Part shown: positions 9,714 through 57,632 of the stretch, piece by piece
How the letters are laid out: each line of letters starts with the position of its first letter
Numbering within the stretch: position 1 is the stretch's first letter
Source of the DNA: Rhodothermales bacterium
GTDB lineage: Bacteria; Bacteroidota; Rhodothermia; Rhodothermales; Bin80
DNA length: 64,000 nt
Reading direction: 5' to 3'
NCBI GenBank assembly: GCA_965220365.1
Contig: OZ244823.1
Span: forward strand, 3,429,125-3,493,124
Notes under the pieces: model-generated
Seen by the model: the letters and a program-made list of their open reading frames with translations, nothing else
Told to the model about the DNA's origin: nothing
Database searches by the model: none
Made by a program: the position numbers and the translations under genes

Positions 9714-9726
9714 GGTAATTATGTAC

Positions 9727-9900
9727 TTAACTGTAACCCTTGCTGGTTTCAGAATCCGATTTCGATTTTTTCGGCTTGGATTTCAAGCGCTGCAGTACCT
9801 GGTTAGGCGTAAGCCCACCGTAACGCGGGTTCGGACTGGGAGTGTTCATGTCGCGGTTGAACTGCGCTAATATCTCGGATTTGGTCTTTTCTTGTTTCAT
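9727..9900 (-). CDS. Small conserved ORF (57 aa) at the left end of the IS1595-type element
   Basis: Too short for the ORF track, so translated by hand: MKQEKTKSEILAQFNRDMNTPSPNPRYGGLTPNQVLQRLKSKPKKSKSDSETSKGYS. ATGA overlap with the endonuclease stop, and its own stop lies inside the inverted repeat. A related ORF sits at the same position in element 2 (54098-54283; shared NP[RK]Y[GN]G[LI]T). Confidence 0.4.
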   Translation of the reverse strand: MKQEKTKSEILAQFNRDMNTPSPNPRYGGLTPNQVLQRLKSKPKKSKSDSETSKGYS

Positions 9901-20977: not shown

Positions 20978-22789
20978 ATGTCCATCAGAGTATTCCGCAT
21001 CATTTTGGCTGCAAAGCTGCCGCTGATTCTGTCACTGGGGCTACTTTTGGGGGCGTGCACGCGGAATGCCCCACTCTTTGAACTCATGGGCCCCGAACAA
21101 ACCGGGATTACATTTGCTAATATGCTGACCCCCGCGGAAACCCTCAACACCTATGTCTTTCGCAATTTCTATAATGGAGGGGGCGTTGCCATTGGCGATC
21201 TGAATCATGACGGGCTGGCAGATGTTTTTCTGACTGGTAATCAGGTATCCAATCGACTGTACGTTAACCTCGGCAACTTCCGCTTTGAGGATGTCACGGA
21301 AGAAGCAGGACTGCATTCGACTGGTGCCTGGACCACGGGGGTCAGTATGGTCGACATTAATGGGGATGGCTGGTTGGATCTTTATCTCAGCAAATCTGGA
21401 CCGCCGGGGGGGGGCAGACGTCATAACGAGCTTTTTGTGAATCAACACGACGGAACCTTCGTGGAGATGGCCCATGAATACGGGATCGCGTTCCAGGCCC
21501 TCGGGATCCACGCGTCCTTTTTTGACTACGATGGAGACCGGGACCTGGATACCTACGTTCTGAGTAATCCGGTACGCTCACTGGATGACCTGCAGCCCAC
21601 TCCGAACCTCCGACAGCTTCCTGATCCAGACGGCGGCAACCGTCTTTTGCGAAACGATGACGGGCAGTTCACAGATGTAACCACAGCTTCAGGGATCTAC
21701 AGCAGTAAGATCGGATTCGGACTGGGCGTATCCGCCGCAGACCTCAACAGAGATGGATGGACCGATCTCTACGTCTCCAACGATTTCTTCGAGCGCGATT
21801 ATCTCTACCTGAACCAAAATGGGACGTTCATTGACGCGGGAACTAGTGCAATCCAGACCATGAGCCTCAGCTCTATGGGGGGAGACATCGCAGACTATAA
21901 TGGGGATGGCTGGCCTGATATCTTTATCTCGGACATGCTCCCTGATCTACCCTGGCGCTATCAATCCCGCATTGCATTTTCATCCTGGCCGGCGTATCTG
22001 AAAAGCGTGGCCGACGGGTACCACCACCAAGCAACACGAAATACCCTGCAACTGAACCGGGGGCCCTCGCCCGACGGACAAATACGATTCAGTGAGGTCT
22101 CCCGCATTACAGGACTGGAAAGTACTGACTGGAGCTGGGGAGGGTTGATTGCAGATTTTGATCTGGATGGCCATCGGGATATTTTTGTGCCAAATGGCAT
22201 CTTCAAAGATCTTCTGGATCAGGATTTCATTTCCCGCGCCTCAAATGCTGATTCACTTAGAAACCTCTTTCTTGCCCATGAGCAGCCAATCCTGAAGCTT
22301 CTCGAACAGGTACCCTCGCACGCCCTATCAAACCATATGTTTGCCGGTAGTTCAGACCTCCACTTTGAGGACGTAAGTCAACAATGGGGACTTGCGACTC
22401 CAGGCTTTTCAAACGGAGCAGCCTATGGGGATCTGGATAATGATGGGGATCTGGATCTGGTCATCAACAACGTAAATATGCCTGCATTTATCTACCGTAA
22501 CCATGCGACAGAACACTTCCCTGAACGGGGCCGGCTGCAAATTGAGCTCCATGGAGAAGCACCCAATACCTTTGGAGTCGGTGCGCAGGTGAGCGTGTGG
22601 GCAACCGGGCGCCAGTGGTATACCGAACAATACCTGCAACGTGGATTTCAGTCCAGTGTAGACCCGGTATTGCACTTTGGCTTCACCGGAGGGTTAGACT
22701 CCGTCATTGTCCAGTGGCCGCACGGCGAACGACAACTCCTCACCGATATCGAAAGCAAACGCCGCCTGATCGTTTTGGAAACCCCATGA
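20978..22789 (+). CDS. CRTAC1/ASPIC-UnbV family lipoprotein with FG-GAP/VCBS repeats (paralogue 1)
   Basis: Start moved to MSIRVFRIILAAKLPLILSLGLLLGAC (lipobox). Repeated DxNxDGxxD(L/I)(F/Y) FG-GAP motifs. C-terminal UnbV_ASPIC block (GVGAQVSVWATGRQWYTEQYLQRGFQSSVDPVLHFG). Confidence 0.8.
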   Translation: MSIRVFRIILAAKLPLILSLGLLLGACTRNAPLFELMGPEQTGITFANMLTPAETLNTYVFRNFYNGGGVAIGDLNHDGLADVFLTGNQVSNRLYVNLGNFRFEDVTEEAGLHSTGAWTTGVSMVDINGDGWLDLYLSKSGPPGGGRRHNELFVNQHDGTFVEMAHEYGIAFQALGIHASFFDYDGDRDLDTYVLSNPVRSLDDLQPTPNLRQLPDPDGGNRLLRNDDGQFTDVTTASGIYSSKIGFGLGVSAADLNRDGWTDLYVSNDFFERDYLYLNQNGTFIDAGTSAIQTMSLSSMGGDIADYNGDGWPDIFISDMLPDLPWRYQSRIAFSSWPAYLKSVADGYHHQATRNTLQLNRGPSPDGQIRFSEVSRITGLESTDWSWGGLIADFDLDGHRDIFVPNGIFKDLLDQDFISRASNADSLRNLFLAHEQPILKLLEQVPSHALSNHMFAGSSDLHFEDVSQQWGLATPGFSNGAAYGDLDNDGDLDLVINNVNMPAFIYRNHATEHFPERGRLQIELHGEAPNTFGVGAQVSVWATGRQWYTEQYLQRGFQSSVDPVLHFGFTGGLDSVIVQWPHGERQLLTDIESKRRLIVLETP

Positions 22790-32489: not shown

Positions 32490-32852
32490 GATCCGACTTG
32501 AACTTGATTTTACAGAAAATACGACCGGAACAACAACCTATCCGAATCCTCTATTGTTCCGAAACCTGAAGAGTCTCCTTCTTAACCTTTGACGACACAG
32601 ATTTCAACAAGGGTCTTGAACCCGTCGCAGATCCTGCCCGTGCATTGAGTTGCACAACCTATTATACTGGCCTTTCTCAGCTAGTTATTCACAATTTATC
32701 CACAAACAATACAACCGGAACAAATAGGTCAAAGCCTAGATAAAACCGAAATATGACGTATATTCGTCGTGCATGTGCTCGCCTGCAGGTGCAGAGGGCC
32801 GCACTCTTCGGTGCCCCCCCCCTTTTTTATCAATCATATCTCATTCCACAAC

Positions 32853-35800
32853 ATGAAGATAAAATTATTTTTATGCGCGCTGATTCCGTTCGCTGCTTTT
32901 TCGGCGGGAAGCGCTTTCGCTCAAAGCCAGGTTCAAGGTACGGTGCGTGATGCCTCGTCAGCTGAACCGCTGCCTGGTGTAAATATCGTCATCAAGGGAA
33001 CCTTTGAAGGAACCACCTCCGACATCAGTGGAGCTTACAGTCTCACCGTGGCTTCACTACAGGACACCTTGGTCTTTTCCTTTATCGGATTCGACACGCA
33101 GGAAGTCGGAATTGATGGTCGAACAACCGTCGATGTGGACTTGATCGAAACAGTCTATGAGGTCGGTGAAGAACTGGTGGTAACAGGCTATGGATCCCAG
33201 GAACGTCGAACTATTACGGGTTCCGTCTCCAACCTTGGAGAGGACGATTTTGTGACTGGTAACGTAAACTCTGTCGAGGAAATGATCCAAGGCAAGGTGG
33301 CCGGGCTTCAAATCAGCACCCGTAATGGGAATCCGAATGATTCACCGGATGTCCGGTTGCGCGGAATTTCCTCTTTCGGGGCAAATCAGTCTCCTCTGGT
33401 TGTTGTGGACGGCGTTGTTGGTGGCAGTATTGACAGCATTGATCCTACAGATATTGAATCTATCGATGTGCTCAAAGATGCCTCTGCCTCAGCTATTTAT
33501 GGGACTCGCGGATCCGCTGGCGTGATCCTCATCACCACCAAAACCGGTGAAGCTCGTGAGGGAGTATCTGTCGATTATAACGCCTACTACACCTTTGAAG
33601 GGATTGAAAACCGCCTGGATGTGCTTTCCGGTGATGAGTTCCGCCGGTTATCTCAAGAGACTGGTTTTGCCGCTCCAGATTTAGGCCACAATACAGATTG
33701 GTTTGAGGAAGTCACCCAGCAAGGTTCGAACATGGTTCATACCCTTGCACTCAGTGGTGGAAGCGAAAATTCTATTTATCGGGTTTCAGGGAATTTCCGG
33801 GACCGTAATGGAATTCAGCGCTATACCGGCTTCCAGGAAATCGGTGGACGGCTCAACTTTACTCAGTGGACGCTTAATCGCAAGTTGGAGATCACTATCC
33901 AGTTATCCGCCAACAAGAAGGATCAAAACTTCGGTTTTGCAGATGCCTTCAAGTTTTCCGGCGTCATGAACCCAACTGCACCGGTAACGGCAGATGGATT
34001 CGAGAATACTGGTGGGTTCTTTGAACAACCGCTGTTTAACTATTTCAATCCGGTTGCAATCATTGAAGAAGGAAGCCGGACTGGTGAAAATAAACTTTTC
34101 ACCAGCGTATTCAGGGGTGAATACGATTTGTCCGCGCTCCTGCCTGGGCTCTCAGTCGCAGCGCAATATTCCTATCAGAATAACGACGTGGTTGCGAGAA
34201 ATTTCTACTCGCGGCGGCACAAGGTTGGTGGCGGTGCCACCGCTGCGTCGCTTGGACCTGGATTTGCTTCGCAATCCTATGCAGATTTGGAGAGCGAGCT
34301 TTTTGAAACGACGCTTCATTATGCTGGTGATCTGACCAGTGATGTTGGGCTTGAATTCATCGGCGGGTACTCCTTCAATGAATTCATCAGTGAGGGCTTT
34401 GATGCTGGTGGAGGCGACTTTGTTACAGATAACGTTGAAGTGAACAACTTCTCTTTCGCACAGGATTTCAACCAGGGAGAAGCCAGTGTTGGCAGCTTTC
34501 GGGATACAAATCGTCTGATCGCCTTCTTTGGCCGAGCGAATGTGAATTATGACGGGACTTTCTTCTTGAATGGCAGCGTTCGTCGGGAGGGATCTTCACG
34601 CTTTGGGGTTGACAACAAATGGGGACTTTTCTGGTCCGCCGGAGTCGGGGTTGAGTTGGCAAGCCTCGTCGAACTTCCCTACTTCAGTGAACTACGCCTC
34701 CGAGCCAGTATTGGTAAGACTGGACAGGACGCTCCAGTCAGCGGCCTTTCTCTCTCCAGGCTTGGTCCAGCAGGGAGCTTCTTTGTAGGTGGCCAATATA
34801 TCCAAAGCTTCAGTCCAGTCAGCAACCCAAATCCAAACCTGAAGTGGGAAGAGAAGACAGAAATTAATTTCGGACTTGATTTCGTTGCTCTGGACAATCG
34901 CCTGAGTGGCCGTATAGATGCATATCAGTCCACGACCAGCGACTTGCTCTTCCAGATCGCCGTACCTGTTCCTCCGAACCTGTTTCCAACCACATGGAGC
35001 AATGTTGGAGAGTTATCAACTCAGGGGCTGGAGTTCTCTCTGGACTATGATATTCTCCAAGCCGGTTCTGCCTCTGGCTTCACGTGGAATTCAGGGCTGA
35101 TTGCTTCCTTCTACTCGGAAACAATGCTGGATGAGTACCTGACAGAAGACGTCCAGTTCATAGCTGAACCTGGTGCTCCGGGACTCAATAACGTCCAGAT
35201 GATTCGGATTAAAGAGGGGGAACCCATTGGCCAATTGTGGGGGCCCCAGTTTTCTAGGATTGGTGACAATGGTCGATGGCTTTTCCATGCCGCAGATGGC
35301 ACAGAAAAAGAGTATGAGGACTTGGCCTTTGGAGATGGAGGAGACGAGCAAATTCTTGGAAATGGCCTCCCTGATTTCCAGCTGGGTTGGTCGAACCGCA
35401 TGTCCTACGGAGATTTTGATGCTAGCTTCTTCTTTGAAGGAGTATTTGGTCATCAAATCGCAAATATGTTCAGTACATTCTACTCCGTGCCAAAACAGAT
35501 TTCATCCTACAATGTCTTGCAGGATGCATTCGATTTGGCCGATCTTAACGATGATCCGCGCTGGTCCAGTTACCACGTTGAAAACGGAGATTATGTACGT
35601 TTGAGCAATGCCTCGATTGGATACACGCTCCCTGCGTCTACGCTTGCAGACACTCCCATCAGGCGGGTACGAATCTATCTATCCGGGAATAACCTGTTTA
35701 CGATCACCGGCTATTCCGGTCTGAACCCGCAGGTACGGTATGTCGACCGTAATCAAGGACAATCAGGACAAGGAGCTACAGTTGGCCCGCTTGGACCGGG

Positions 35801-35867
35801 AATTGAGCGTCGCTTGGAATATTTCACAACACGCTCTGTCAGTTTTGGCGTCAACATCAATTTGTAA
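32853..35867 (+). CDS. SusC/RagA-family TonB-linked outer-membrane transporter
   Basis: Start moved to MKIKLFLCALIPFAAFSAGSAFAQ. Has a CarboxypepD_reg-like N-terminus (VQGTVRDASSAEPLPGVNIVIKGT), a plug (ITGSVS..., IESIDVLKDASASAIYGTRGSAGVILITTK) and a C-terminal beta-barrel ending in F-x-L. A SusD gene immediately follows. Confidence 0.9.
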   Translation: MKIKLFLCALIPFAAFSAGSAFAQSQVQGTVRDASSAEPLPGVNIVIKGTFEGTTSDISGAYSLTVASLQDTLVFSFIGFDTQEVGIDGRTTVDVDLIETVYEVGEELVVTGYGSQERRTITGSVSNLGEDDFVTGNVNSVEEMIQGKVAGLQISTRNGNPNDSPDVRLRGISSFGANQSPLVVVDGVVGGSIDSIDPTDIESIDVLKDASASAIYGTRGSAGVILITTKTGEAREGVSVDYNAYYTFEGIENRLDVLSGDEFRRLSQETGFAAPDLGHNTDWFEEVTQQGSNMVHTLALSGGSENSIYRVSGNFRDRNGIQRYTGFQEIGGRLNFTQWTLNRKLEITIQLSANKKDQNFGFADAFKFSGVMNPTAPVTADGFENTGGFFEQPLFNYFNPVAIIEEGSRTGENKLFTSVFRGEYDLSALLPGLSVAAQYSYQNNDVVARNFYSRRHKVGGGATAASLGPGFASQSYADLESELFETTLHYAGDLTSDVGLEFIGGYSFNEFISEGFDAGGGDFVTDNVEVNNFSFAQDFNQGEASVGSFRDTNRLIAFFGRANVNYDGTFFLNGSVRREGSSRFGVDNKWGLFWSAGVGVELASLVELPYFSELRLRASIGKTGQDAPVSGLSLSRLGPAGSFFVGGQYIQSFSPVSNPNPNLKWEEKTEINFGLDFVALDNRLSGRIDAYQSTTSDLLFQIAVPVPPNLFPTTWSNVGELSTQGLEFSLDYDILQAGSASGFTWNSGLIASFYSETMLDEYLTEDVQFIAEPGAPGLNNVQMIRIKEGEPIGQLWGPQFSRIGDNGRWLFHAADGTEKEYEDLAFGDGGDEQILGNGLPDFQLGWSNRMSYGDFDASFFFEGVFGHQIANMFSTFYSVPKQISSYNVLQDAFDLADLNDDPRWSSYHVENGDYVRLSNASIGYTLPASTLADTPIRRVRIYLSGNNLFTITGYSGLNPQVRYVDRNQGQSGQGATVGPLGPGIERRLEYFTTRSVSFGVNINL

Positions 35868-52372: not shown

Positions 52373-53842
52373 CATAAGCGCTAACTTGTTTATGCACGAA
52401 AATAATTTTCAATTTGAGCGGTTCTTTTGCGGGAAGGCTCCTTCAGTCCGTCGGATATGGAGGTCCACTGCTGAATCATCGTGGTGAATCCGCAGATAGG
52501 TTCAATCGCTCGAATCACTTCATTCAAGGCGAACCTAAAATCTTTCCAAGGACTGTGCGGGTATCCGGTAGCCCCAGGGGGAAAAAGTTCGTGCGTGACG
52601 AACGATTTTTTCTGTGAGCAGTGCCACGAGGAGCTTTCCATAAAGCCACGCCTTTGCACTCTCTTCATCGGATTTTGGCAGATGGCCAAACTGAACCAGT
52701 GACTTGAATCTCTTAAAGACGAGTTCAATCTGCCACCTGAGGCGATACCCCTCAAGCACATCGGATGCAGAAAACCGGTCTACAGGAAAGGTTGTAAACA
52801 CGATCACATAACGTGCAAAGCATCGCGTTGCATCCAGTGGCTGTTTCCCTTTCCGCTGGGCATTCTGATCCATACGCCTGAGCGCCTTCTGAGTCGCTTC
52901 TTCTGTTTTTCGAAGCACACAAATACGTCCAGAGACCCCCGGTCCAGTTTTCGTCTTCACCTTCACACACCATTGTCCAATCTCCCCTGTGCGTGTGATG
53001 GATTCCACCGCGGATAATAAGTTGAATGCGCCCCCCGATTCCTGCTCAAAATGGAATGCCCCCGTGTTCACACGAACGGTCACATATCCCCCTGCGTTTC
53101 GAACGTATTCAATCCCATTCGCGGTGGAATATCCCCGGTCTGCCAGAATATAATCGCCTGGATGGACCGGAAAATGCTTGAAGGTTTCTGCACTCCCCTG
53201 CCCCTTGGTCGGCGTGAGCTTGAAGAAGTCACACCCGAAGGAAGGAAGCGTCACACTGTAATGCAATCTCCACTGGGATCCCGTTTTTCCTGGCTCACTC
53301 ACCACGGTGGCATCAAACGCGCGCATCTCATGTGCGGGATCCGATACGGCAATCCCATGTTCCTGAAACAGGGCCATACACAAGGCATAGAGCCAATCCC
53401 GGGATTTGCGCAAACGCTTCAGGAGCGCGACATCCGAGAGGTCCGCGATCTCCGCCTGACGGGCACGAACCACCGTTTCCCGTAATGAGTGTCCGCACCC
53501 CAAGTGGATGAGCAAGGTTCGAAGAAGCGCCTCGGCAGACTTGTCCTTACGCAGTCCCCGCAAGGCCCCAGTTTCTGCTGCTAGCTTCTCCCAGTTCTCA
53601 GGTAAAAATGAAAGCAATACCCCCCAGTCCTCACTAGTTGGGGCAGCGGTAGCGGTCCCCGGCATAAAATCTCTCCCAGCAGTCGTTTCGTTGTAGAATA
53701 TATCCAAGCAGAAGGACAATCGCAGCCACACAACTCAGAAAGTCCTTGTGGCGCTCCAACACAAAACCGGCTATCTTGCCTTCATCCCCCAGATATCGCA
53801 AAACTACAACAATATTCTAATCTGAACATGTTAGCGCTTATG
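52373..53842 (-). mobile_element. IS4-family insertion sequence, copy A (1470 bp)
   Basis: Perfect 13-bp termini (CATAAGCGCTAAC ... GTTAGCGCTTATG). Identical to copy B (59608-61077) apart from two substitutions I could find (52497 T/C and 52533 A/G). The left boundary is uncertain by up to 3 nt because of a C run. Confidence 0.85.
52535..53731 (-). CDS. IS4-family DDE transposase
   Basis: 398 aa. Contains the ILADRGY catalytic context and the IS4 Y(2)R(3)E(6)K signature in YRLRWQIELVFKRFK. Confidence 0.9.
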   Translation of the reverse strand: MWLRLSFCLDIFYNETTAGRDFMPGTATAAPTSEDWGVLLSFLPENWEKLAAETGALRGLRKDKSAEALLRTLLIHLGCGHSLRETVVRARQAEIADLSDVALLKRLRKSRDWLYALCMALFQEHGIAVSDPAHEMRAFDATVVSEPGKTGSQWRLHYSVTLPSFGCDFFKLTPTKGQGSAETFKHFPVHPGDYILADRGYSTANGIEYVRNAGGYVTVRVNTGAFHFEQESGGAFNLLSAVESITRTGEIGQWCVKVKTKTGPGVSGRICVLRKTEEATQKALRRMDQNAQRKGKQPLDATRCFARYVIVFTTFPVDRFSASDVLEGYRLRWQIELVFKRFKSLVQFGHLPKSDEESAKAWLYGKLLVALLTEKIVRHARTFSPWGYRIPAQSLERF

Positions 53843-54060: not shown

Positions 54061-54068
54061 TTTTTTTG
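54061..54068. repeat. 8-bp target-site duplication TTTTTTTG (left copy) of IS1595-type element 2
   Basis: Identical octamer at 56721-56728, immediately outside the inverted repeats. Confidence 0.8.
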
Positions 54069-54097
54069 GGGAATTATAACCGAAACTGTAACCAGAT

Positions 54098-54283
54098 TCA
54101 GGATTTTTGAATCTTTTGAACACTCGATTTTTTAGCATATTTGCCTTGATACAGAACCTTGTGAAACGCTTCCCGGAGCGTGATTCCATTATACTTCGGG
54201 TTCGTTACCGGTTTGTCCAGCAACTCATGGGGATTGCTGGTGACTGGAGTGGATGCGGGTTTGGGGTTTGTGGGATTATTCAT
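54098..54283 (-). CDS. Small conserved ORF (61 aa) at the left end of IS1595-type element 2
   Basis: MNNPTNPKPASTPVTSNPHELLDKPVTNPKYNGITLREAFHKVLYQGKYAKKSSVQKIQKS. The start overlaps the methyltransferase stop (TGATG). Position and the NP[RK]Y[GN]G[LI]T motif are shared with 9727-9900. Confidence 0.4.
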   Translation of the reverse strand: MNNPTNPKPASTPVTSNPHELLDKPVTNPKYNGITLREAFHKVLYQGKYAKKSSVQKIQKS

Positions 54284-55678
54284 CAGAGAAATAGCTGAGG
54301 TAACATGGCTTTGCCGGTATACGGATCATTCATCATTGGTAATCGGGGAAGACAATCATCGAAATAATCCTTGATCGACCAAATCTGCATCCGGGGATAG
54401 GAAGAGATACCAACCTGAATTTTACCCGTACTGATCATTTCCATTTTTGCACTCTTTGTACGGACTGGTCTAAGAGTTACATAACAGCCAAGCGCTGCCT
54501 GATCTCTTTTCGTAACCCCGATAAAGTCACGTAACCCGCTGAGACTGAACTTCCCGCCTTTGACTTGTGCAAGGGCCAGTTTTGATTTCAATTTCTTAGG
54601 CATCTCAGCAAGATATGCACGTCCATCTACCCCTCCATCCGCTACCTGTTTTGTATTTGGCACAAATCCTGGTAACCGTGTGATTGCCCAGGATTCAAAG
54701 TCAAAAGGCTTTTCTCCTGCCAGCTTTTCTGCTGATCTAAGATCATAGGGAATCCCGTAAACCGGTACACTTGAATCTTTCAACCTCTTGTCCCGCACCA
54801 AATCAATGGCAAAGGATGAGATGTCAATACCAACAAATTGTCTATTCAGGTTTTTAGCTGCCTCTACTGTTGTACCACACCCACAAAAAGGATCAAGCAC
54901 GATATCGTCCTTGTTGCTTGATGCTTTAATGATGCGTTCAAGTAGGGCCAGTGGCTTTTGGGTTGGATAGCCAAGTCGCTCCTTTGCCATGGCATTCAAG
55001 GATGGCATAGAGATCACATCGTCTGGTGTTTTTCCTTTTGGCATCGGTTTACCTGCTTGCCCACCTTTTGTATATCTCCATTCAGTCATTCCACTTGCAA
55101 AAGGAACTAATATGTCGTCTCGATTAAAACAGTAAACTTCACTCTTGGTGTAACAAAGCAAAATGTCATGCGATTTCGCAAATTGTTTTTTACCCCTGCT
55201 TGCATTTGCGTAGTGCCAAACAATTTCATTGCGAAATACCCCCCCCCGTATGCTTAACATATATAGCATCCATTACAACTTTCAGGTAATGACTGGCCGT
55301 TGGATCACAATGTAGATAAATACTTCCCGTGTCTTTCAACAACCGATGCATCTGCTCCAGGCGCTCAGCCATATAGGTCAGATAAGCCAACATCCCACAC
55401 TTTCCCAGGATCTGATGCAATCCACAAATTGCATCGTGAGCTTTTAATCCCGGCGCATTCTTATACCTCACCCATCTATCTTCAGCTGCTTCGTCCCATA
55501 CCCATGTATCTGTGAATGCACGGAACTGAGCATCTCCACCTCCGTCCCTATGATACAACTGGTTGTACGTTGCTTTGGAGTTGAACGGGGGGTCTAAGTA
55601 AATCAAGTCCACGGAACAATCATCCCATTGCTCTATCCAATCCAGACAATCCCCGTAGTATAATGCGTTTGGTTGCAT
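54283..55678 (-). pseudogene. Beta-class N6-adenine/N4-cytosine DNA methyltransferase fused to an Mrr-like PD-(D/E)xK domain; reading frame broken at a G9 tract
   Basis: The N-terminal ORF (55226-55678) has LIYLDPPFNS. The C-terminal ORF (54283-55269) has FRNEIVWHY and FCGCGTTVEAA, followed by FESWAI...DGGVDGRAY...LAQVKGGK. The two frames meet at the C9 run at 55239-55247 (G9 on the coding strand). Removing one G gives ...MDAIYVKHTGGVFRNEIVWHY.... Confidence 0.8.
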
Positions 55679-56649
55679 TAGGCTACAGGGTGATTCCTCT
55701 TTGCGATCAGATCTTCAAACTTGCACCGTTTCCCAACCATGCCTTGAACGATGGACTTCATCTGGTCGATCGTGTCCAACTCCCGGATATTGTGCTTTCC
55801 TGCGAACTGGTTCACATAGCGGTTCAGGTGTTTGACACTCATGCGGTGATAGGTACCATGGAACGCACGTTTGAATACAGCCCAAAAGGATTCTACTCCG
55901 TTCGTATGGGCTAAGTGGTTAATGGTCGTGGCAAGCGTCCATTCCTTACTGCTGTGGCATACCCAGAAGTGATCTGTAAGCCCCTGATAGCTACTGTGTT
56001 CATCCGTGAATACAGGGGCATCCTTTGCCCTGGTTTGCTCTACAAAGCCCTGTAACGTGCTTTTCGTAGTATCTGGAATAACTTGCGCTACGATCTGATT
56101 TGTTTCACGGTCTTTGGCACCTACAACGGCTACCTTCCCAACCGTGCCTCTGCCAGCGTTGAGTTTCTTGTCTTTGTGCTTGTTCTTTTCCAATCCACCG
56201 ATGTAGGTTTCGTCTACTTCAACCGGGCCATTGAAGGCGGTTTTAAGCCCGGGGATCAATCCTTCACGGATCCGGTGCAGCATATGCCACGCATTCTTCT
56301 GGGCGATATTCAAGTCCCGATGCAGTTTCATACTGGATACACCTTTGAGGCTGGTTGCTTCGAGAAAGATCGCCCAAACCCATTTCTGTAAGGGGATCTT
56401 GGTGCTTTGCAGCGCTGTGCCAGTCTTGACAGAGAAATACCGTTTGCAATCTCTGCACCGGTACGGCATCCGATTTCCGTTCTTGGTTCGATAGGTGTTT
56501 TCACGACCACAGCGAGGGCATTTACGGCCGTCCGGCCAGATCATGGCTTCAAACCATTTTTCGGCAGATGCTTCATCAGGAAACCATTTTCCCAATTGAA
56601 TCAGGCTGATGCCTTTTCGGTTTGAGCGTCCAGGTCCATTTGTTGCCAT
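55678..56649 (-). CDS. IS1595-family (ISXO2-like) DDE transposase with an N-terminal zinc ribbon
   Basis: CPRCGR...YRCRDCKRYFSVKTGT, SSMKLHRDLNIAQKNAWHMLHRIR, VDETYIGG..KNKH. Paralogue of 11475-12410. Its stop overlaps the methyltransferase start (TAATG). Confidence 0.9.
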   Translation of the reverse strand: MATNGPGRSNRKGISLIQLGKWFPDEASAEKWFEAMIWPDGRKCPRCGRENTYRTKNGNRMPYRCRDCKRYFSVKTGTALQSTKIPLQKWVWAIFLEATSLKGVSSMKLHRDLNIAQKNAWHMLHRIREGLIPGLKTAFNGPVEVDETYIGGLEKNKHKDKKLNAGRGTVGKVAVVGAKDRETNQIVAQVIPDTTKSTLQGFVEQTRAKDAPVFTDEHSSYQGLTDHFWVCHSSKEWTLATTINHLAHTNGVESFWAVFKRAFHGTYHRMSVKHLNRYVNQFAGKHNIRELDTIDQMKSIVQGMVGKRCKFEDLIAKRNHPVA

Positions 56650-56720
56650 TTTTCCATAACTTTGTTGTACCTAATATACGCAATATCTCAACAAAAGTTA
56701 CAGTTTCAGTTATAATTCCC

Positions 56721-56728
56721 TTTTTTTG
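56721..56728. repeat. 8-bp target-site duplication TTTTTTTG (right copy) of IS1595-type element 2
   Basis: Identical to 54061-54068. Confidence 0.8.
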
Positions 56729-56820
56729 GGGGGTTACGTGCGTGCAAATGCCATTACTGCAAGATACGAAAATTCCCGAATATGCGTCCATATAAAATAC
56801 TAGGGATTTCGCTTCGCGGA

Positions 56821-57191
56821 CAAGCCCTTGATGCGCGCTGACGCACGCAAATAAGCCCCCGGCCGCCAGATCGCGCGCACGCGGATCCGCGCGTCACGCC
56901 CGCGCGTTGTCCTGCAAAATGTGCCAGTTATCTAGAACAACTAGCACGATTCATGCAAATTCGTGCAGTTTCGCGGTGATTTTCAGTGATCATGCACCGA
57001 ATTGCGTACCGTTGGGCTGATTTCCAGAACACTCGTGTACTGACGTGCACTTTTGCACTGTACTGGATCGCTGTTGCGCCGTACACGTGCGTTTCTACCA
57101 AACACGCGGTACACATACGCCCCCGCTCGCGCTCAACTGCACGTCAGTTGCGTAGTGTACCGTGCTGTTGTGTGTTGACCGTATACCGTAC
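56821..57191. repeat. Conserved non-coding region, copy 2 (inverted paralogue of 13652-14063)
   Basis: CAAGCCCTTGATGCGCGCTGACGCACGCAAATAAGCCCCC is the exact reverse complement of 14024-14063, and further shared blocks are listed under copy 1. Lies directly downstream of the membrane-protein gene, as in copy 1. Confidence 0.6.
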
Positions 57192-57632
57192 CTAACCGCT
57201 TGTGTCCTCAGTCGGCACCGGACGCTTGAAGAATGATAGTTTGTAGCGTTGCCCGCGCCCACGATCATTGGGCATACCTATGAAATCAACCGTGATCCAC
57301 AGAAAAAAGAACCACGCATAAGCCCCCCAAGCATACCCCCCTATATTGTTCATCATAAGCCCAATGAAAAAAAAACCCGTTCCGCAAGTTATCCCCAAGC
57401 TCCATGCCGGACTAAAGCGTTCAATCTTTCTACTGAGGGGAAAATATAGCCACAAAGCTATGATTAGAATTATCGTAACTAGTGCGCCCAAAATTAGATC
57501 TGTGGCTGTGCCATTGTATGGATTCCCCCCGCCACCAAGATTTCCTCGGCCAATAGCTGCCCAATAAAAAACAAAACTGCCTGATGGAAGCCCCACAGAG
57601 TACCAAAGTCGAGTAAGTCGATTCATGATCAT
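57192..57632 (-). CDS. Small polytopic membrane protein, copy 2
   Basis: 146 aa, about 4 TM helices, ATGA overlap with the lipoprotein stop. Paralogue of 13238-13651. Confidence 0.6.
   Translation of the reverse strand: MIMNRLTRLWYSVGLPSGSFVFYWAAIGRGNLGGGGNPYNGTATDLILGALVTIILIIALWLYFPLSRKIERFSPAWSLGITCGTGFFFIGLMMNNIGGYAWGAYAWFFFLWITVDFIGMPNDRGRGQRYKLSFFKRPVPTEDTSG

Follow-up and report, generated by a model that had tools for sequence, protein, structure and literature searches.

The stretch of DNA analysed here, a window of 64,000 nucleotides (nt) from a Rhodothermales bacterium (GenBank assembly GCA_965220365.1, contig OZ244823.1), carries two related insertion sequences (IS) of the IS1595 family with passenger genes, and the second of these, element 2, is the subject of this report. 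Element 2 occupies positions 54069-56720 of the window (2.65 kb) and all of its genes lie on the minus strand. They are, in reading order, a transposase gene (55678-56649), a methyltransferase gene that is divided by a frameshift into two open reading frames (ORFs), and a small ORF (54098-54283). The methyltransferase start overlaps the last base of the transposase stop (TAATG) and the small-ORF start overlaps the methyltransferase stop (TGATG), which suggests a translationally coupled three-gene operon. This gene order and both 1-nt overlaps had been described in a first-pass annotation made from the sequence alone, and are present as described.

The element is bounded by inverted repeats with 24-nt arms, which start GGGAATTAT and are complementary at 23 of 24 positions. 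The arm at the small-ORF end is GGGAATTATAACCGAAACTGTAAC (54069-54092, plus strand; the right repeat in transposase orientation), and the other lies at the transposase end (56697-56720, minus strand; the left repeat, IRL). A terminal repeat had been predicted, and is present, at this size rather than the 23/25 given initially. The repeat pattern has no second occurrence in the window and none in 100 shuffles. The 8-mer TTTTTTTG is found immediately outside both ends, at 54061-54068 and 56721-56728, as the A/T-rich target-site duplication noted previously. Element 2 has therefore both the short inverted repeats and the 8-bp duplication that an IS1595 element requires.

The transposase is an IS1595-family DDE enzyme of 323 amino acids (aa) with an N-terminal zinc ribbon. 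It matches the Pfam domains DDE_Tnp_IS1595 (PF12762, E 1.5e-36) and Zn_ribbon_IS1595 (PF12760, E 1.4e-10, residues 24-70), and scores 167 bits against the NCBIfam model transpos_IS1595 (NF033547), for which the cut-off is 75. The residues D146, D216, E253 and K260 are conserved between both window transposases, which are 62-63% identical, and a gapless alignment of the termini of the two elements matches at 18 of 24 positions. These data agree with the proposal that element 2 is a second, diverged IS1595-type element with the layout of element 1. No relative of the transposase was found among the IMG/VR viral contigs, and an Rfam scan of the element gave no match.

Evidence that the unit moves as a whole comes from sponge metagenomes. 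A contig from run X8 joins position 54070 straight to 56728, skipping 54071-56727 and keeping the flanks, and the insertion is recent, as a related strain keeps this empty site. A variant copy of element 2 is present in contigs of runs X2 and X5 between other flanks, with the duplication TAAATTAT. The sibling L060 measures 2,659 bp, is 89-93% identical to element 2 and lies at another site with its own duplication, TTTGGAAA; the loci L061, L063 and L146 hold elements of 2.66-2.73 kb with the same three genes. Siblings occupy other sites both in the genome of the window and in other samples, and the 90%-identity cluster of the transposase has ten members, several of them on the same 3.58-Mb contig as the window. 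Element 2 is thus a real and mobile element. The empty site in X8 reads T7 G9, where the precise absence of the element would read T7 G6 (three extra G), and the G run adjoining the insertion site (54061-54068 / 56728-56733) is length-polymorphic.

Transporter IS (tIS) of the IS1595 family were reportedly treated by Siguier, Gagnevin and Chandler in 2009 (cited in PMC3129680). IS1595 elements that carry passengers already form a recognised category under this name (bioRxiv 10.1101/2021.05.26.445724; PMC3129680). In element 2 the passenger, a gene unrelated to transposition, encodes a methyltransferase-nuclease fusion and lies between the transposase and the far inverted repeat. Element 2 is an autonomous tIS of the IS1595 family. 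Like this class it has one zinc-ribbon DDE transposase and an 8-bp duplication, and its short, imperfect terminal repeats enclose passenger genes that travel with the IS. Its lineage differs in having a second, conserved small ORF at the distal end, which is not known to have been described before, in a methyltransferase-nuclease cargo with a putatively hypermutable tract, and in its spread across sponge-symbiont phyla. Within the literature library searched, no paper connects IS1595 tIS to sponge symbionts or to phase-variable methyltransferases.

The cargo protein and its poly-G tract

The first of the two methyltransferase ORFs (55226-55678, minus strand) encodes 150 aa with the motif IV sequence DPPFN and covers positions 1-67 of the Pfam N6_N4_Mtase profile. 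The second (54283-55269, minus strand) encodes 328 aa and covers positions 65-218 (E 3.8e-35), so that together they span the full profile. The part downstream of the frameshift (54283-55238, minus strand) comprises the target-recognition region, motif X, motif I (FCGCGTT) and a nuclease-like domain. A beta-class methyltransferase with the motifs DPPFN, FCGCGTT and DGGVDG...AQVKGGK had been predicted here; all of these motifs are present, but they are distributed over two frameshifted ORFs and not carried by a single gene. For the repaired protein more than 8000 homologues were found, 460-530 aa in length, and many of them have a precomputed match to Mrr_cat (PF04471).

Over its N-terminal 300 residues the protein resembles the beta-class enzymes M.RsrI, M.MboIIA, M.BceJIV and CcrM (PDB 1eg2, 1g60, 8urk and 6pbd), with hidden Markov model E-values of 1e-27 to 1e-34. 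The cargo has the same motif order as these N6-adenine/N4-cytosine methyltransferases, with motif IV (DPPF) before motif I (FxGxG), but differs from them in about 160 extra C-terminal residues, which form the nuclease-like domain, and in a variable middle region that appears to be exchanged among siblings.

The C-terminal region (54286-54768, minus strand) is predicted to adopt a PD-(D/E)xK nuclease fold of the Mrr/MspJI type. A structure model of the whole 328-aa ORF gave only methyltransferase matches in Foldseek, and the domain was then modelled alone with AlphaFold2 (161 residues, alignment of 32 homologues), giving a predicted local distance difference test score (pLDDT) of 92. The top Foldseek matches of this model are the Rpb5 N-terminal domain and the restriction enzymes AspBHI and MspJI (template modelling score, TM, 0.51-0.52, probability 0.97), followed by EcoO109I, Can2, EcoT38I, Avs4, EcoRII-C and Ecl18kI. 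The residues D347, D351 and K373 are invariant and Q371 is conserved in at least 90% of 18 homologues, and likewise in 32, which gives the conserved acidic residues and (E/Q)xK of the PD-(D/E)xK group. This consistent set of matches and the conserved D/D/QxK residues make the domain nuclease-like in fold and motif, with a putative activity. The first-pass annotation had suggested an Mrr/PD-(D/E)xK domain at this place, and the fold and the motif bear this out, although Pfam Mrr_cat itself stays below threshold. Sequence-only searches of the PDB with the domain and with a family profile found no nuclease, and PADLOC assigned only generic methyltransferase models to the cargo.

The domain resembles Mrr, MspJI and AspBHI (PDB 4f0p and 4oc8) in its predicted fold (TM about 0.5 over about 150 residues) and its D...QxK-type motif. 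Those enzymes belong to the modification-dependent Type IV group and recognise DNA through a domain of their own, whereas the cargo domain forms the C-terminal end of a methyltransferase and its sequence similarity to them is marginal. The presence of nuclease-like and methyltransferase domains in one chain also recalls the single-chain Type IIG/IIC restriction-modification (R-M) enzymes, in domain composition only: Type IIG enzymes such as MmeI and Eco57I have an N-terminal nuclease followed by a gamma-class (NPPY) methyltransferase, in contrast to the beta-class order and C-terminal nuclease-like domain of the cargo.

The break between the two ORFs lies at a tract of nine G on the coding strand (G9; 55239-55247, minus strand), which sets the methyltransferase out of frame and is a candidate phase-variation switch. 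Removal of one G or addition of two (8 or 11 G) restores a protein of 464 or 465 aa. A tract of 9-11 G is found at the same codon position in nine sibling loci, across homologues that are 63-71% identical. It is in frame as G9 in L061, L063 and L150 and as G11 in L062, L144, L148 and L149, and out of frame as G10 in L060 and as G9 in the window; L145-L147 are in frame and have no tract. The L060-type allele itself differs between the contigs of different runs, with G9 in X7, G10 in X1-X4 and an in-frame G11 in X6. Two further homologues carry homopolymers elsewhere, namely a G10 at a different glycine run in L015, which is frameshifted, and a C11 at codons 3-6 in L005. Of 80 more distant relatives of the methyltransferase, taken from other metagenomes, a single one has any run of at least 8, located elsewhere in the gene. 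Outside the tract GGG accounts for 25% of the glycine codons.

A simple tract within the ORF that sets the reading frame, as in known phase-variable genes, is present in both element 2 and L060. In each of these OFF copies the tract is the sole lesion, and one change in its length gives a full-length protein. The ratio of nonsynonymous to synonymous differences per site (pN/pS) between them is 0.07 for the N-terminal methyltransferase part and 0.14 for the C-terminal part, at a pS of 0.2-0.3. These values rule out long-standing pseudogenes and indicate that the genes were selected until very recently. As the OFF copies are otherwise intact and under strong purifying selection, phase variation is suggested rather than decay, and the poly-G tract may be a hypermutable ON/OFF tract.

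Phase-variable methyltransferase and R-M genes are known from Helicobacter, Campylobacter, Neisseria and Haemophilus. These phasevarions likewise have homopolymers or repeats within the ORF, such as the poly-G and repeat tracts of mod, Type IIG and hsd genes; close relatives carry them at lengths that are in or out of frame, while the rest of the gene stays intact. They are chromosomal genes of host-adapted pathogens, whereas the gene of element 2 rides on a transposable element in sponge symbionts and has a candidate switch only.

The middle recognition region is of the P0042 type in the window copy and of the P0005 type in L060. When the two genes are compared (L060:4889-6300 and window 54283-55678), the methyltransferases are 96-97% identical at both ends and 43% identical in the middle region, and the recognition module appears to have been exchanged. 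Element 2 and L060 are placed in the same genome by the shared 3.58-Mb contig and by shared reads.

Three more G9/C9 runs are present in the window (51% GC), at 13961-13969, 21406-21414 and 32814-32822, where about 0.5 would be expected. The run at 21406-21414 lies within an FG-GAP/ASPIC gene without breaking its frame and encodes PPGGG; of the other two, one is just upstream of the start of the ORF at 32769-35867 and one is in non-coding repeat DNA. These runs may be further contingency tracts.

The small ORF and the family of related elements

The small ORF of element 2 (54098-54283, minus strand) encodes 61 aa, with the motif ELLDKPVxNPKYGGITLREA and a basic tail, and stops just inside the inverted repeat. 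The final 330 nt of every element encode a protein of 45-65 aa whose stop is a few codons before the inverted repeat. These proteins are of several sequence types, all with a short central helix-like motif and a tail rich in lysine and arginine. In 12 pairwise comparisons pS was 0.5-0.8 and pN 0.15-0.5 (pN/pS about 0.2-0.7, most 0.3-0.5), and this excess of pS over pN indicates that the gene is translated and kept by purifying selection. Only 32 representatives among 1.84 billion proteins matched a profile of the two window copies; nearly all measure 53-91 aa, and they form two subtypes corresponding to elements 1 and 2. The cargo is always placed between the transposase and the small ORF, and an equivalent small ORF is present in all cargo-bearing siblings and also in cargo-less relatives of 1,248 bp, which identifies it as a predicted conserved core gene of the IS and not as cargo.

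Searching with an alignment of both window transposases gave 59 related loci in species-representative genomes. Almost all are metagenome-assembled genomes (MAGs) of sponge or other marine-invertebrate symbionts, and they belong to at least 10 phyla. The host groups include Arenicellales, Paracoccaceae, Acidobacteriota, Caldilineaceae, Acidimicrobiales, Ca. Poriferisocius, Latescibacterota, Spirochaetia, Thiosymbion and Chthonomonadaceae, as well as one archaeal Cenarchaeum chromosome. Clean inverted repeats starting GGGAATTAT or GGGACTTATATAC were found at about 30 of the 59 loci and perfect 8-bp A/T-rich duplications at 18, and the elements range from 1,248 to 5,578 bp. The smallest are seven identical, cargo-less copies in one Arenicellales MAG (L016-L021 and L043), each with its own perfect 8-bp A/T-rich duplication, which point to a recent burst of a minimal IS consisting of transposase and small ORF.

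According to Pfam, the cargo varies. In a Chromatiales MAG (L001:1243-2538) it is an N6_N4 methyltransferase fused to an HNH nuclease, a second and independent fusion. L005 and L015 carry homologues of the element 2 cargo, the latter together with a YafQ-like toxin; L027 carries a Type IIG-like enzyme and L034 a C5 methyltransferase with an unassigned ORF of 250 aa after it. SocA/Panacea antitoxin domains are found in L029 and L031, an SDH-type protease in L033 and DUF7689 in L004. The two window copies had been proposed to represent a family of IS1595 derivatives that carry modification cassettes; the varied modification and defence cargo of the 59 loci, and the recurrence of the same layout in sponge-symbiont MAGs, show that such a family exists.

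All close homologues of the cargo that could be placed on DNA (P0001, P0003, P0004, P0005, P0008, P0011 and P0017) directly follow an IS1595 transposase wherever upstream DNA is present, and each is followed by an ORF of 62-64 aa. Among more distant methyltransferases (38-44% identical) from non-sponge metagenomes, five of the 43 loci with enough upstream DNA (L067, L099, L101, L103 and L078) have a preceding IS1595 transposase (33-37% identical), which makes the association either ancient or of repeated origin. The Cenarchaeum locus (L008:5948-6930) has a transposase 50% identical to that of element 2, an IRL-like end, GGGGCTTATATCGCTGAGTAC, and a GC content like that of its host; no right inverted repeat turned up within 6 kb, and the locus may represent a transfer between domains followed by decay.

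A comparable unit has been reported from Neisseria gonorrhoeae NCCP11945, with 26-bp inverted repeats, an 8-bp duplication, homologues of Type IIG R-M and S genes, and a COG3677 (IS1/IS1595-type) transposase-like gene (PMC2853133, Furuta, Abe and Kobayashi 2010). It is similar to element 2 in combining R-M-type genes and an IS1595-like transposase in one repeat-bounded unit with an 8-bp duplication and an empty site in a related genome. It differs in that its R-M gene is truncated, its transposase is probably inactive and it is a single case, whereas element 2 has an intact transposase, many siblings and another enzyme architecture.

A switchable cargo and its alternatives

The explanation that we favour, with a probability of roughly 55%, is that element 2 is a tIS with a single-chain methyltransferase-nuclease cargo, a poly-G switch and an exchanged recognition region. 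The DDE transposase with its zinc ribbon, together with the 24-nt repeats, inserted the unit at an A/T-rich site with formation of the 8-bp duplication. The IS core consists of the transposase and the small basic protein encoded against the far inverted repeat, with the cargo between them. The cargo would be a single protein in which a beta-class N6-adenine/N4-cytosine DNA methyltransferase is joined to a PD-(D/E)xK nuclease-fold domain, and would most likely act as a compact single-chain R-M-type enzyme that benefits or stabilises the element. Its expression would most likely be switched by slippage in the poly-G tract, the G9 of this copy being OFF and G8 or G11 being ON, and exchange of the middle target-recognition region between siblings would give different specificities.

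Several points weigh against this explanation. The window allele has only ever been seen as G9, with lengths read from assembled contigs. The Foldseek E-values of the C-terminal domain are weak (0.01-0.5), its Mrr_cat score of 19.8 bits is below the gathering score of 21, and the domain could serve in DNA binding only. We know of no methylation or cleavage activity in this protein family, nor of a characterised restriction enzyme type that combines a beta-class methyltransferase with a C-terminal PD-(D/E)xK domain. The small ORF has no match in Pfam, NCBIfam, PHROG or PADLOC. The element is presumably ISNwi1-like; this IS1595 subgroup has ends of the form GGnnaTTAT, a DDEK signature and passenger-bearing forms of about 1.75-4.75 kb.

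The frameshift might also be a homopolymer miscall in a long-read assembly, in which case the gene would be intact and constitutive and the differences in tract length would be sequencing noise. Homopolymers of 9-11 are the main error class in HiFi-type assemblies, and all three out-of-frame genes (window, L060 at 3.98x coverage, and L015) come from assemblies that look like long-read (PacBio HiFi-type) ones by contig or record naming, whereas L148, L149 and L150, whose record names suggest short-read scaffolds or Logan short-read assemblies, are in frame. We nevertheless regard a miscall as unlikely, as contigs from four separate runs of the source sample give exactly nine G, the G9 in the FG-GAP/ASPIC gene of the same window is in frame, the HiFi-type contigs L062, L063 (305x) and L144 have in-frame G9 or G11, and the sibling allele varies between 9, 10 and 11 among runs of which at least one is Illumina (adapter sequence in X9). 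If the tract is real, it could be merely the site of the first lesion in a dead cargo gene, a decaying passenger. The two ORFs in place of one, the sibling in the same genome that is also out of frame, and broken genes among relatives (the transposase is split in L062 and truncated in L144) would fit such decay, which is made improbable by the tract being the only lesion in both OFF copies, by the pN/pS values, which imply that the methyltransferase part and the nuclease-like part have both stayed under selection to this day, and by the retention of the tract at one position across 63-71%-identical homologues although GGG is a minority codon. Very improbable, in our estimation, is that the out-of-frame tract is still decoded by transcriptional slippage or ribosomal frameshifting, so that the gene is attenuated and not off. 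Long homopolymers do promote RNA polymerase slippage and so rescue frameshifted genes in some symbionts and IS, but no conserved frameshift-stimulating structure was seen, with none looked for, and the coexistence of in-frame and out-of-frame lengths among siblings fits switching at the DNA level better.

The nature of the enzyme is a separate matter. The cargo may be an orphan methyltransferase with an inert, nuclease-derived DNA-binding domain, which would shield the element, or the replicon that carries it, against restriction by a newly entered host, or adjust transposition in the way known for Dam methylation with IS10 and IS50, without restricting DNA. Orphan methyltransferases are common on mobile elements, element 2 has no separate restriction gene, and PADLOC recognises only the methyltransferase part and Mrr_cat remains sub-threshold. 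This alternative is somewhat doubtful all the same, since the D..D-G..QxK residues are strictly or nearly invariant in 32 homologues and the nuclease-like domain is under strong purifying selection; furthermore, related tIS carry an HNH fusion, a C5 methyltransferase with a 250-aa ORF, or a Type IIG-like enzyme, which suggests that nuclease function is what is carried.

A more far-reaching form of the switchable, single-chain explanation is put forward tentatively. Here the lineage would be a 'transposable phasevarion', a self-mobile IS with changeable specificity and poly-G ON/OFF switching that spreads horizontally among distant sponge symbionts and has the small protein as an accessory factor. 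It would then be a portable, switchable epigenetic or defence module, and the small basic protein a previously unrecognised IS1595 accessory factor. If the switch is real, this would be the first case known to us of a phase-variable methyltransferase on its own transposon, and would extend methylation phase variation from pathogens to environmental symbionts.

Element 2 belongs to an already known class, the cargo-carrying IS1595 elements or tIS, and is recently active. The new leads, none of them proven, are the conserved poly-G tract of variable length, the conserved small core ORF, which is a concrete candidate for a new IS1595 accessory function, and the cross-phylum spread in sponge microbiomes. 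The tIS of IS1595 are catalogued but little studied, and the lineage described here transports methyltransferase-nuclease fusions, R-M pairs and toxin-antitoxin modules among sponge-associated bacteria that differ greatly. R-M systems and transposases are known to be abundant in sponge symbionts (PMC5099237, PMC11410982), and a tIS vehicle would help to explain the spread of such systems.

Element 1 and the surroundings of both elements

Element 2 lies within a 5.76-kb segment that is bracketed by two direct copies of an IS4-like IS (DDE_Tnp_1 by Pfam; 1.47 kb, 99.86% identical), at 52373-53842 and 59608-61077, both on the minus strand. The inner flanks of the two copies are both CCCGTTTGCCC (11/11), and the outer flanks are GGAATATACCC and GGAGTATACCC, which agree at 10/11 positions, GGA(A/G)TATACCC. 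The swapped 11-bp duplications indicate that a circular molecule with the IS recombined with a chromosomal copy, and support entry of the segment as a circle of about 7.2 kb via the IS4-like element. The first-pass annotation had placed element 2 inside a captured rolling-circle replicon; the captured circle is supported, whereas the rolling-circle part is not, as Pfam and PHROGs scans revealed no Rep among the ORFs at 56729-59604 and in the paralogous region near element 1, where short or frameshifted genes could escape.

That paralogous region forms a module adjoining both IS1595 elements, which consists of a lipoprotein, a small membrane protein and a non-coding repeat. Positions 56821-58264 correspond to 12564-14063 beside element 1, in inverted orientation and in blocks that are 65-98% identical; the lipoprotein and membrane-protein module had no match in Pfam or PHROG.

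Element 1, the paralogous tIS, occupies 9714-12482 on the minus strand with the duplication AAAAAATT. All four of its genes are on the same strand, namely the transposase (11475-12410), a 325-aa protein with the motifs FAGSN and NPPW (10543-11520), a 220-aa ORF with a weak Tsp45I-like match only (9897-10559) and the small ORF (9727-9900). The 325-aa protein is labelled a methyltransferase from its motifs only. It has more than 2000 homologues, all annotated as 'hypothetical', with no Pfam domain among them and no PDB relative by sequence, and may represent an uncatalogued methyltransferase family. The nearest named homologue of this cargo is from a Bacteroidota MAG.

A sigma-70 promoter and terminator scan was uninformative, the model being probably unsuited to a Bacteroidota-type host. 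One ORF of the window has a type IX secretion system (T9SS) sorting domain, and this domain together with the Bacteroidota homologue of the element 1 cargo makes a Bacteroidota-type (FCB) symbiont the probable host. The region around element 1 is a mobile-element hotspot; an IS110-family transposase gene (14600-15736) adjoins a match to domains D1-D4 of a group II intron at 15939-16162 (Rfam RF02005, 164 bits).

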